From Campylobacterales bacterium (GTDB lineage Bacteria > Campylobacterota > Campylobacteria > Campylobacterales > QNZT01): a DNA stretch of 64,000 nucleotides. The translations under genes were made by a program, and so were the position numbers. Positions 56,573 to 59,500 of this stretch are shown here, one piece after another. Numbering within the stretch: position 1 is the stretch's first letter; each line of letters starts with the position of its first letter. The DNA lies in contig JAJRSK010000064.1 of assembly GCA_024278835.1 (NCBI GenBank), forward strand, positions 19,101 to 83,100. Reading direction: 5' to 3'. A model generated the notes under the pieces. It was not told the DNA's origin, searched no databases, and worked only from the letters and a program-made list of their open reading frames with translations.

Positions 56573-59500
56573 CGTAATAACTTTATCGCTTTTCGTTTGG
56601 TACTAGTGTTAAAATCACTTGCAAAGGCACTCCCCTTAAATACACCACTTTGGATACCTGTTATGTTGGTATTTTCCGATTCATAGATATACTCAAAGCA
56701 GGGGTGTTCACTACAGTTTGAGCTGGCATTATAGTCGCTGTATTGGCTATGCCATAGCCAGTTTGGAATATCTAAATGATAAAAAGCTTTATAGGAATTG
56801 TCATGGGTATTGACTAAGTCATAAGGGATGACTCCTTTATCGGCTGTTAAGATATTTTGTGCGGAGGTATATGTGGATGTGGCAGAAGAGATGCTTCTTG
56901 ACTCTTTTGCTAGCAAGCCTAAAATAGTGCTGATATTATCATCCTTGTTGATATACCAACGTGATGTTTCCTTTTTAAATCCCGAGAGATTTGTCGTGCT
57001 ATATATCTCTATCAAGCTTTTGCTAGGGACAGAATCCTCTCCTGTTTTGATATCTTCAGGTACAATTTTTCCATAGTAAAAAGTGGCATCACCAGAAAAG
57101 AGGCTAGTACCTTCTCCTCTCACCGTTGTATCGACGATATCACTCACTTGGATAGAGAGGTTGGCATCGCCACCGTCTATCATGATAGGTTCGCTAGGTA
57201 CTTTATAATCTCTAGGATAGTTAAATCGTACATCACTATAGTTCACATCTGCCACACCTGCTATGAAGCTTAAGTGTGCGCCATTTTCAGAAGTGGGTGG
57301 GATTATCATGATAGGATTATTTAAGATATGAAGAGATGTTGTGATGTTGAGGTCATTGGCATAAAAAAGAGATTGTGGGGTGGCGTAATTGGTCATCAAT
57401 CCCCCTTTCTCTCCCTTGGCACTTAAGGTGACTGAGAGATTTTTGAGCCATGCGCTCATATTGAGGTCATTGGAGAGATAGGTAAAATCACCATCAAGAT
57501 GGTTTATCATGATAGGAGAGATAAATCCTATATCAAAATGGTCAGGGATAAAAGTAAGATTTTGCTCTACATAAATCCTGCGCTCTGCTAGTGGTGTATC
57601 ATCGCTATCTACTTCTGCCCATGTAGTGTCATTTATCTCTAGGGTGAGGATACCGACATTGTTAAAGCTGATATTGCCCTCAGGGGTGAGTCCGTCGGTG
57701 AAACTTAGATTGTTGGGATTGAGAGAGAAAACACCTTCTAAGGAGCCATCATTTGGACTACCTTCTCGAAATAGTAGGCTAGATGTAGGTGTTGTAAGGC
57801 TTTGGTTAAAGTCAGGCGTGCGTGTCGTGCTTTGGTAGCTTTGTGCCTCTACTTGGAAGGTGTAAGCATGTTCAGAAATAAGCTTGGCATCTAAAGTGGG
57901 GGTGAGTATAAACTTTTCGGGACGGATGGAGAAGGTGTCCGAAGAGTTTGATTCGACAGTCTCGCCTTCATAAAGTGCGGTTATCTTGACCTTGGCACAC
58001 TTGATGGCTTTGTTGTGTGTGAAGCTAGCAGGATTGAAACAACCGTTGGTATCAACTGCTTCATTGCCATCCCACAAGGTACTAGTATTATAAAGTGAGG
58101 TACAAGCAGCATCGGAAAAGCTTAGAAGTTCTAGTTTTGTGATATTGACATCACTTATACTAGTGTTGGTTTCTTTGTCTCTTGAAAGAATAGTAAGGTT
58201 GATTGGTTTGTCGGCGATTTTTGTTGTGATATTGTTATCCCAGTTGAAACAGCCGCCGTTTTGGTTGACAGCATTGAGGATGGCTTGGGCACAGGTGATA
58301 GTACGTACAAGGGAACTTTCGGTATTGAACAAATCAAGAATTTGTGTGGGTGTAAGTGCCCTGTCAAATACTTTGACTTCGTCAATAGCGCCTTTGTAAG
58401 ATAGGTTATTGGATGTTTGATCTCCCCCCAATAGAGATTGTTTCTCCTTTTTGTATAGTGCCGATATCTTTAAAATCACTATCTACCTTGGTGCCATCTA
58501 CATAGAGTTTTGAAATCCCTTGATAATAGGTAAAGGCAAGAAAATGCCAATTGCCATCATGATAGCCATTGGCATTTAAATCATAGCTGACAGTATTGCT
58601 CCTGCTGCTACTGTTGGCTGTCCATCCTCGGATGATATATCCATCTGCATCATAAGCTATCGCTGTACCTGGTTGCCATTCTCCAGCACTATTTGTAAAT
58701 GCAATAATTCTGGCATAATCATCTCCTTTGGGATTGGAGGTATTTATCCAAGCGGTTAGTGTGACTTCTTTGGTGAAGGGTTGATTCCATGTACCATACA
58801 TCCTAGCATCAACACCATCAAAATTCGCAGCACGGGCAACTTTTCCTGAAGATATACTATCTGTACCGATATTTGACGTGAGATGGTTATTGTGCCCGCT
58901 ACTATCTAGTACTTCACCAAATGTTTGCTCGTATTTACACGCATCCAAGTGGTAGTTTGCAACAGGAGTGGGCATAGAACAATCTATAGGCTCTCTCGTG
59001 TTTCCATCATAGTTCTTAGCACTATTTTCATTGTCATATATAGATAGGACTTGGTTAGGAGTTAGAGCAACATTAAATATTTTAAGTTCATCAATGTTTC
59101 CTTTGAAATCATTGTCATAATCTGTTCTATTGCCTATGCGAAAATCTTGAGAATTTGAGCCAATATCACCACTTTGTTCACGCTCATATACTAACTGACC
59201 ATCTTTGTAAACTTTCTGTTTATTTCCATCATAGGTGACTACGGCGTGATACCAAGTGTTTTCTGTTACGGGGAAAGAGTTACCGCCATCCCAATTCCAA
59301 TGAGGTTGCCAAGCATACTGAAAATAACCATCTCGGACACCTGATTCATAAAGACTTTCTTTATTGTAGATGATATTTTCACCATCAACTTTTTCTGCTT
59401 TAAACCATACGGAGATACTCCAAGGTGACTCATTAGGATTTAATACATTTCCAAAATCTATATAGTCATCAACTCCATCAAAGTGCGAGGCATTGTTGAT

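Follow-up and report, generated by a model that had tools for sequence, protein, structure and literature searches.

In Vibrio cholerae, mshQ is the last gene of mshDOPQ and lies beside the minor pilins of an MSHA-type locus that also encodes MshL, MshM, MshE, with its c-di-GMP motif, and MshG. MshQ is a large secreted protein in which LamG/ConA-like modules are followed by a DUF6701-type C-terminal region. Deletion of mshQ leaves fewer MSHA pili on the surface (PMC7096442). In one proposal MshQ is a tip protein of the PilC/PilY1 kind with a C-terminal strand that is added to MshP, and its extreme C-terminus has been modelled docking on the minor-pilin tip complex by beta-strand addition (PMC13533445). 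In Neisseria, the type IV pilus tip-associated adhesin genes pilC1 and pilC2 are turned off by G-run-associated frameshifts, with reduced piliation. Their phase variation depends on a long poly-G tract in the signal-peptide region, for which length polymorphism has been demonstrated (PMC13017665). Poly-G/C contingency loci are also described in Campylobacter jejuni, which belongs to the same phylum as the organism studied here and has coding-strand G runs inside the reading frames of surface structures. Tracts of at least 7 are counted there, the modal length is 9 (9-10), and the lowest listed rate is 1e-4 per division (G7), rising with length (PMC3401435).

The window, which is the whole 64,000-nt stretch of Campylobacterales DNA analysed here, contains an MSHA-type type IV pilus locus, and the first gene of this locus is mshQ-like. 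The locus resembles that of V. cholerae in its adjacent minor pilins and in its MshL, MshM, MshE and MshG homologues. MshL scored 249 bits (cutoff 250.2) and the MshE-type c-di-GMP motif 61 bits (cutoff 38); the locus also has T2SSF and pilin genes. The protein has the same layout as MshQ, the C-terminal likeness being recognized here by hhalign (99.5%). Unlike mshQ, which comes last, the window's gene stands upstream of the minor pilins.

An MshQ-like gene read in two frames

The gene and its surroundings comprise the following features.

56569..60412, minus strand: whole disrupted mshQ-like gene; a one-base repair gives 1,280 aa
58406..60412, minus strand: upstream ORF, 668 aa, ATG start; signal-peptide-like segment, LamG1, LamG2 and truncated LamG3
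56569..58479, minus strand: downstream ORF, 636 aa, GTG start, in the other frame
58339..58774, minus strand: third Laminin_G_3 domain, with the frameshift inside it
56572..58311, minus strand: about 580 aa at the C-terminus, remotely homologous to the MshQ DUF6701 region; no further lesion; ends ...KRKAIKLLR
54125..56572, minus strand: four minor-pilin-like genes (229, 291, 143 and 154 aa) with prepilin N-termini, directly downstream

The first-pass annotation had described a single MshQ-like LamG gene divided by a +1 frameshift, a description that is supported. The two ORFs overlap by 74 nt in different frames. All three repeat modules that it quoted were found (GALLDEIKFYDTALTSTQIQDIYD, FKGNIDELKIFNVALTPNQVLSIYD and SYKGAIDEVKVFDRALTPTQILDLFN), the third being encoded in the downstream frame, and the upstream ORF does end early, at ...KGETISIGGRSNIQ* (TAA at 58408..58406). 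Removal of one G produces a single ORF of 1,280 aa that reads through ...ISIGGDQTSNNLSYKGAIDEVKVF..., and the repaired protein consists of a signal peptide, three LamG modules and the DUF6701-like C-terminal region. The N-terminal signal-peptide-like segment of the 668-aa ORF reads ...ALFLLTFLHSLAEA followed by SLVAEYRFD. This ORF may really start at a TTG near 60361, which follows an AAGGA. An entry identical to the 668-aa product is on record in NCBI.

Laminin_G_3 (PF13385) matches the MshQ-like protein with 202 bits across 3 stretches. In the repaired protein the third LamG covers profile positions 16-150 of 151 and scores 73.5 bits if the repair leaves Arg at the junction or 74.1 bits if it leaves Asp, and in the truncated ORF only positions 16-125 are covered, with 39.9 bits. 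The split is not a chance ORF pattern because it cuts a Laminin_G_3 domain and because homologues are continuous across the point. This is one gene and not two, and its MshQ-like product, which is probably a pilus-tip adhesin, has a Sec-type signal peptide, three lectin-like LamG modules and the DUF6701-like C-terminal region.

The C-terminal region was compared with MshQ-type proteins at several levels. Alignment of 14 C-termini of the window's family with 11 of MshQ type using hhalign gave a probability of 99.55% and an E value of 2.2e-23 over 449 aligned columns, among them the ...VGI...FIPDHF motif. Pairwise BLASTP with the C-terminal half was marginal (E 0.011, at the FIPDHF motif), so that the profile-profile comparison alone is decisive. 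Unlike MshQ, the window protein has no direct match to Pfam DUF6701 (PF20419) in its C-terminal 593 aa even at E<=1; P0014 scores 368 bits. In the precomputed Pfam list of the nearest homologues, the only DUF6701-related family is PF28247 (DUF6701_3rd). The AF2 model of the region has a pLDDT of 66, falling below 50 in the last 75 residues, and Foldseek matched it to generic tandem Ig-like/macroglobulin-like (beta-sandwich) chains in the PDB with TM < 0.3. The extreme C-terminus is conserved within the window's family, ending in ...KRKAIKLLR, whereas MshQ-type proteins end in ...FGIYRGNDRIIxxRE.

The first minor-pilin-like gene overlaps the mshQ-like stop by 4 nt. The four products carry the TIGR02532 prepilin domain with weak GspH, ComGF and XpsI matches, and are presumed to be tip-complex partners. 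The 143-aa pilin has no Glu5, a trait of GspK/PilK-type pilins. The order of the mshQ-like and minor-pilin genes is the same in the related loci L013 and L016, and the gene order of the window is found in L012, L013 and L016.

Whether relatives carry a single or a split gene was a question raised by the first-pass annotation. In every complete locus examined the matching region is one ORF. This holds for 8/8 GTDB, NCBI and Logan loci (L001, L002, L004, L005, L006, L012, L013 and L016) and for about 30 metagenome loci, and no split allele was found among these about 38 related loci. Single-ORF homologues P0001, P0003, P0007, P0009, P0010, P0016 and P0019 span 97-98% of the repaired protein. Divergence within the locus is greatest in the LamG region, with 29-53% identity compared to 69-98% for the remaining genes. 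Relatives carry from 0 to at least 4 LamG modules, a further difference from V. cholerae MshQ. These comparative data show that the MshQ-like proteins are modular, with a conserved core of about 580 aa and LamG modules that exchange rapidly. As a close comparator, the nearest relative genome, GCA_054040595.1 (MshG 97% identical), was considered and set aside, as it lacks mshQ..mshN beside mshE.

Position of the extra base

The junction comprises the following sites.

58424..58429, minus strand: G6 run (C6 on the plus strand), Gly-Gly in the upstream frame
58420..58429, minus strand: interval holding the extra base, GGGGGG AGA T (GGGGGGAGAT), bounded by frame homology on both sides
58406..58408, minus strand: premature TAA stop in the shifted frame, five codons past the Arg codon AGA

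The window sequence across the junction is GGGGGGAGATCAA. Homology in the upstream frame extends to Arg (AGA, 58423..58421) and homology in the downstream frame resumes at Gln (CAA, 58419..58417). With a looser alignment in the low-complexity S/N stretch the interval reaches about 58411. The first-pass annotation had taken the G6 run as the switch point and had placed it at 58434-58439, which is not where it lies.

Orthologous DNA at this site reads GGT GGG AGA CAA in L013 and GGA GGA CGG CAG in L012, compared to GGG GGG AGA [T] CAA in the window. Both orthologous modules (n=2) therefore read IGG-R-Q, and GGG GGG AGA of the window is colinear with both. Because of this colinearity the extra base is most parsimoniously placed, from the sequence comparison, at T58420 just 3' of the run, which appears more likely to be the insertion than a G. 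Removal of a G to leave G5 would instead change Arg to Asp (GGDQ). Hence the run does not stand as a demonstrated switch point. The IGGRQ evidence comprises two orthologous modules only. Across 255 LamG modules the residue that follows the I-G-G/A motif is most often Arg (62) and seldom Asp (10), but variation at this position makes the evidence weak. Pfam scoring of the Arg and Asp repairs (73.5 vs 74.1 bits) cannot discriminate between them. Indels arise far more often in G6 runs than outside repeats, whether by mutation or by sequencing error, and the prior therefore favours the G run as the site.

Origin of the frameshift

No further stop or frameshift occurs in the 1.9 kb past the junction, no other lesion was found over the 3.8 kb of the gene, and the conserved C-terminus is kept. 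An old pseudogene would be expected to have gathered further lesions; their absence means that the event is recent, reversible or artefactual. Of these we favour, with about even confidence, a real, recent and unprogrammed loss-of-function mutation in which the extra base is T58420 and not part of the G run. The intact downstream sequence and retained C-terminus argue for a recent event. One extra base within 58420-58429 would shift the frame inside the third LamG and would yield a secreted 668-aa fragment with a broken third LamG and no C-terminal part. Export of the downstream part, which lacks a signal peptide, would not be expected. By analogy with V. cholerae MshQ, itself only a remote homologue, loss of the tip adhesin would probably reduce piliation. 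A slip from G6 to G5 could restore the frame, with Arg changed to Asp, as an accidental low-frequency reversion and not as an evolved switch.

A second gene in the window bears on this reading. The OprF/OmpA-like surface-protein gene at 32881-34131 has an in-frame TAG at 33847, where an intact relative with 93% identity has GAA (Glu). This nonsense substitution argues for real gene inactivation in the lineage over homopolymer miscalls. The mshQ-like case resembles an ordinary frameshift pseudogene or assembly indel, being a single-base indel that splits a domain in an otherwise intact gene colinear with single-ORF homologues, and no feature in the available data sets it apart from that class. 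A split mshQ-like gene by itself raises no new question. If the frameshift is real, the strain or population would lack the LamG tip adhesin of an MSHA-like pilus and would probably have fewer pili, with an effect on attachment to surfaces and perhaps on susceptibility to phages. Combined with the nonsense codon of the OprF/OmpA-like porin gene, a real frameshift would be a hint that exposed surface proteins are selected against.

The organism may instead carry an intact 1,280-aa gene, with the extra base a mistake in the consensus of a draft or metagenome-assembled contig. We regard this as a serious possibility, though one we tend to disbelieve. The gene is faultless elsewhere and the extra base lies in or beside a G6 run, as a miscall would have it. 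The sequence comes from a 90.6-kb contig of an NCBI assembly, the closest relatives of which are MAGs, and the same strain was not found in any independent assembly in database and JGI metagenome searches. Exact searches with the window's own proteins gave no other same-strain or same-species contig, a scan of JGI metagenomes for the junction-flank pattern gave no match and no same-species sequence, and a GTDB scan gave relatives at 51% identity or less and nothing closer. Against a miscall, this is the sole apparent indel in 64 kb with about 68 densely packed ORFs, indicating that the assembly is not generally indel-prone, and all ten window proteins that were looked up matched database records exactly. 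Moreover, the orthologues put the extra base at a non-homopolymer T, and the second broken gene in the window carries a substitution and not an indel. Mis-assembly through internal repeats was rejected, as no long stretch of identical DNA, through which a mis-join could arise, is shared by the LamG repeats near the junction. An assembly error would be an annotation issue only, and the remedy would then be to join the two ORFs as a single gene of about 1,280 aa or to mark them as a pseudogene. A fixed pseudogene and a sequencing error, both listed as alternatives by the first-pass annotation, are still the leading explanations. Two other ORF pairs considered as possible split genes, PAS (170 aa)/MCP (426 aa) and a 175/189-aa pair, are separate genes in relatives too and were rejected as signs of an indel-prone assembly.

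An evolved switch, with the G run acting as a contingency tract, the gene caught OFF at G6 and slippage to G5 turning the tip adhesin ON, appears unlikely. It would account for the full ORF obtained with G5. The target is also of the usual phase-variable type, a variable surface-exposed pilus protein, and the LamG region is the most divergent of the locus. However, G6 falls below the tract lengths treated as phase-variable in C. jejuni, and the run is missing from both orthologous modules, which have GGTGGG and GGAGGA. GGGGGG is no commoner than chance, occurring 6 times in the window where dinucleotide-preserving shuffles give 6.1 +/- 3.0. The G6 dicodon and the following AGA are in frame and colinear with the orthologues, so that G6 looks like the native length; the ON state (GGDQ) would lose the Arg common to both orthologues; and 0 of about 38 related loci are split. 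Phase variation, one of the alternatives in the first-pass annotation, is accordingly not supported as the favoured reading. The known parallel is the poly-G control of Neisseria pilC. There the run is long and lies in the signal-peptide region, whereas the run in the window is a G6 located mid-gene inside a domain, unconserved and probably not the site of the extra base. In addition, Neisseria PilC/PilY1 is a beta-propeller and the window protein is LamG plus DUF6701-like.

Independent expression of the two ORFs, or production of the full-length protein from the window allele by +1 ribosomal frameshifting or transcriptional slippage, is highly improbable: the downstream ORF does have a GTG at 58479 preceded by AAGG, and core-only C-terminal homologues exist as separate genes in L024 and L037, but those stand-alone modules each open with a signal peptide right at the module boundary, whereas the downstream ORF of the window begins mid-LamG without one, no homologue has a frameshift or conserved slippery site, all orthologues being in frame here, and, next to the A/T runs of at least 8-9 where slippage is known, G6 makes a poor template for it.

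G runs elsewhere in the pilus locus

G/C runs of at least 6 occur three times in the window, and 3/3 lie within the pilus locus with G on the coding strand, a distribution that speaks for phase variation. One is the G6 of the mshQ-like gene, another G6 lies in the ribosome-binding region of the mshM-like gene, and the third is a G9 in mshG. It is doubtful, on the evidence of this one genome, that these runs exert a tiered stochastic control of the pilus, through the mshG G9 switching the whole pilus on and off, the mshM-like G6, and a G6 to G5 change in the mshQ-like gene that would bring back a functional adhesin with Asp for Arg. If they did, contingency control like that of Neisseria pilC and C. 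jejuni would extend to an environmental MSHA-type pilus of a free-living Campylobacterales. The G9 occupies 46836-46844, codons 11-13 of mshG, and is in frame; 1 such run was seen where 0.03 was expected by chance. Its length fits the C. jejuni tracts far better than does G6, suggesting that the G9 in mshG is a better candidate for phase variation than the run in the mshQ-like gene.

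Split mshQ-like gene in the pilus locus

The mshQ-like gene is read on the minus strand as two ORFs, which lie in different frames and overlap by 74 nt. The junction reads ...ATC TCT ATT GGG GGG AGA TCA AAC ATC CAA TAA.

Features of the split gene and its junction
60412..58406, minus: upstream ORF, 668 aa
58479..56569, minus: downstream ORF, 636 aa, GTG start
58429..58424, minus: G6 run
58423..58421, minus: AGA (Arg codon)
58420, minus: T, candidate extra base
58419..58417, minus: CAA
58408..58406, minus: premature stop TAA

The two overlapping ORFs and all other features described in the first-pass annotation are present, except that it placed the G6 run 10 nt away at 58434-58439. 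Deletion of one G produces a single 1,280-aa ORF containing ...ISIGGDQTSNNLSYKGAIDEVKVF..., much as predicted. Deletion of T58420 produces the identical ORF except for ...ISIGGRQTSNN....

The repaired protein has three Laminin_G_3 (LamG) domains (202 bits), the third of which crosses the junction. This domain spans profile positions 16-150 of 151 after repair (73-74 bits) and only 16-125 in the truncated upstream ORF (39.9 bits). In a search of 5.8 billion proteins, single proteins covered 97-98% of the repaired query; single-protein homologues include P0001 (1,525 aa, 56% identity), P0003 (1,515 aa) and P0007 (1,288 aa). Three related loci (L012, L013 and L016) match the window in gene order: rsmE and rpmE lie to one side, the minor pilins and the secretin to the other, and the mshQ-like gene of each is a single ORF. 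With these three included, GTDB, NCBI and Logan yielded eight complete loci, and the gene is unsplit in 8/8 of them as well as in ~30 metagenome loci; in metagenome loci L024, L037 and L040 the single ORF is just ~600-660 aa. The domain crossing the junction and the unsplit homologues indicate that the window's two ORFs are one gene, a split MshQ-like LamG gene as originally proposed.

Gene content marks the pilus locus as MSHA-like. Its secretin reaches 249 bits with the MshL model (cutoff 250.2), and the ATPase bears an MshE-type c-di-GMP-binding domain at 61 bits (cutoff 38). The locus also has a T2SSF platform protein, an AAA_22 MshM-like protein and seven prepilin-like genes. The C-terminal 580 aa of the mshQ-like product had no direct match in Pfam. 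Because hhalign matched a 14-member family profile to 11 MshQ-type proteins over their DUF6701 region (probability 99.55%, E 2e-23), the protein is assigned to the MshQ family as a divergent member. An AF2 model of the C-terminal region (pLDDT 66) shows beta-sandwich domains strung in tandem and found no specific counterpart in the PDB. MshQ of V. cholerae is the putative adhesin, and mshQ deletion leads to fewer surface MSHA pili (PMC7096442). MshQ has also been proposed to play the part of PilC/PilY1, and in a model its extreme C-terminal strand completes the tip complex of minor pilins (PMC13533445). The frameshift would cut the C-terminal region off from the signal peptide and LamG modules, abolishing the tip adhesin, and could have a polar effect on the four translationally coupled minor-pilin genes.

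Site of the extra base

Homology to relatives holds in the upstream frame as far as Ser-Ile-Gly-Gly-Arg, and in the downstream frame from Gln onward. Only two orthologous third-LamG modules exist for comparison, GETISIGGRQLSNSNNSYQG (L012) and GIVLSIGGRQSGGSDSYKG (L013). Their DNA reads ATA GGA GGA CGG CAG in L012 and ATT GGT GGG AGA CAA in L013; the window has ATT GGG GGG AGA T CAA. Gly-Gly (six nucleotides) and Arg are thus colinear with both orthologues at the codon level, so the surplus base most likely falls after them, a placement for which these two are the only informative sequences. Repair to G5 would require an ancestral Gly-Gly-Asp-Gln and a coincidental orthologous Arg in the shifted frame. 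On the other side, G6 runs suffer indels much more often than unique sequence does, the Arg position is variable over LamG modules generally (Arg 62/255, Asp 10/255), and looser alignment within the S/N-rich stretch permits a shift as far as ~58411. The G6 run had been named as the switch point; losing one G does restore the frame, but the orthologues favour a surplus base beyond Gly-Gly-Arg, and we consider it doubtful that the run is where the base was gained.

Origin of the frameshift

We regard it as an even call whether the frameshift is a real, recent and unprogrammed loss of function. No secondary lesions were found in the 1.9 kb downstream; therefore any real event was recent. A second surface-protein gene is also broken.

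32881-34131, plus: OprF/OmpA-like outer-membrane gene (OMP beta-barrel, TSP3 repeats, OmpA domain) with an in-frame TAG

The TAG lies at 33847-33849 (...AVIKK*SMPKI...). A 93%-identical relative (GCA_054040595.1) has GAA (Glu) at this site and an intact 416-aa protein, in NCBI and Logan assemblies alike. Finding two surface-protein genes broken within 64 kb shifts the balance toward real loss-of-function mutations.

An assembly or sequencing error is a serious minority possibility, because a polished long-read assembly at ~Q45 is expected to yield roughly this number of errors; moreover, the window's proteins are recorded on an NCBI contig of 90,618 bp, the relatives of which are MAGs. Against it, the second broken gene carries a nonsense substitution, not a homopolymer artefact, and the ~68 tightly packed ORFs of the window include no other apparent indel-split gene.

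Evolved G-tract phase variation, one of the readings offered in the first-pass annotation, is unlikely for this gene. In its favour, a pilus adhesin is a classic target type: the Neisseria pilC genes are switched through poly-G in their signal-peptide region (PMC13017665). Every one of the window's three G/C runs of at least 6 also maps to the pilus locus, G being on the coding strand. The G9 run in mshG (codons 11-13) is among these, and chance predicts 0.03 such runs per window.

46836-46844, minus (coding; C9 on plus): G9 run in mshG, the T2SSF platform gene (ORF 45633..46874), in frame, encoding LGGGK

Yet GGGGGG occurs 6 times in the window against 6.1 expected, the G6 run is missing in both orthologues, and no related locus from GTDB, NCBI, Logan or metagenomes is split. 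Phase-variable tracts in C. jejuni were counted from 7 upward, with a modal length of 9, and the lowest listed rate is 1e-4 per division, for G7, with rates increasing as tracts lengthen (PMC3401435); the mshQ-like G6 falls below this range, whereas the mshG run has the modal length. The G6 run is not credible as a contingency tract. The mshG run is a credible and better candidate; relatives whose MshG is 93-97% identical encode LGGK there from CTAGGGGGAAAA (G5) or GGAGGA, one Gly fewer than the window.

Two genes or programmed recoding is very improbable: in L024 (3627-5408) and L037 (5818-7794), the two loci inspected, a separate gene encodes the C-terminal module and begins, at the module boundary, with a signal peptide of its own, while the window's downstream ORF begins mid-LamG with MILKISALYKKEKQ... 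and lacks one.

LamG modules and other window genes

The frameshift is an ordinary kind of feature, correctly observed in a single pilus gene. The mshG G9 run, the modularity of MshQ-like proteins and the joint disruption of two surface-protein genes may be worth more.

Identity to relatives is 29-53% in the LamG region, which diverges faster than any other part of the pilus locus, 72-76% in the C-terminal region and 69-98% in other locus genes. LamG module number also differs among relatives; both features fit a putative exposed binding region. Some relatives have the ~580-aa C-terminal core alone with its own signal peptide. Others carry LamG modules before the core, from one to at least four, at times with other domains, in proteins of 1,045-2,492 aa. 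By eye the window gene looks mosaic, its third LamG resembling P0001 and the next linker P0003.

The nearest relative (L014; GCA_054040595.1, 1-11239) keeps mshE, mshG and the three pilin genes of window 45633-60412. Upstream of mshE, genes that include a molybdate ABC transporter stand where the window has its 11 genes from mshN-like to mshQ-like; the pilus assembly and tip part is therefore absent from that genome or relocated in it.

The third G run (G6, C6 on plus, 50136-50141) lies in the ribosome-binding region, within the 18-nt spacer AAACGGGGGGCGGGATG from the secretin stop (50150) to the AAA_22/MshM-like ATG (50131); relatives have G5 (L016) or G4 (L013). The window's only A/T run of at least 9, T9 at 39040-39048 (A9 on minus), is in the first codons of the longest-ORF PAS prediction, beside a divergent ORF starting at 39060. 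The PAS-only (170 aa) and MCP-signal/CZB (426 aa) genes (37328-39086, minus; 35-nt overlap) were rejected as a second frameshift because L014 and another related locus, L017, have the same two genes; they resemble the bipartite CetB/CetA energy-taxis pair of Campylobacter. An apparent type II restriction-modification system lies at 20614-22574 (plus), where the gene for a C5 cytosine DNA methylase (436 aa) precedes that for a BglII-family restriction endonuclease (215 aa).
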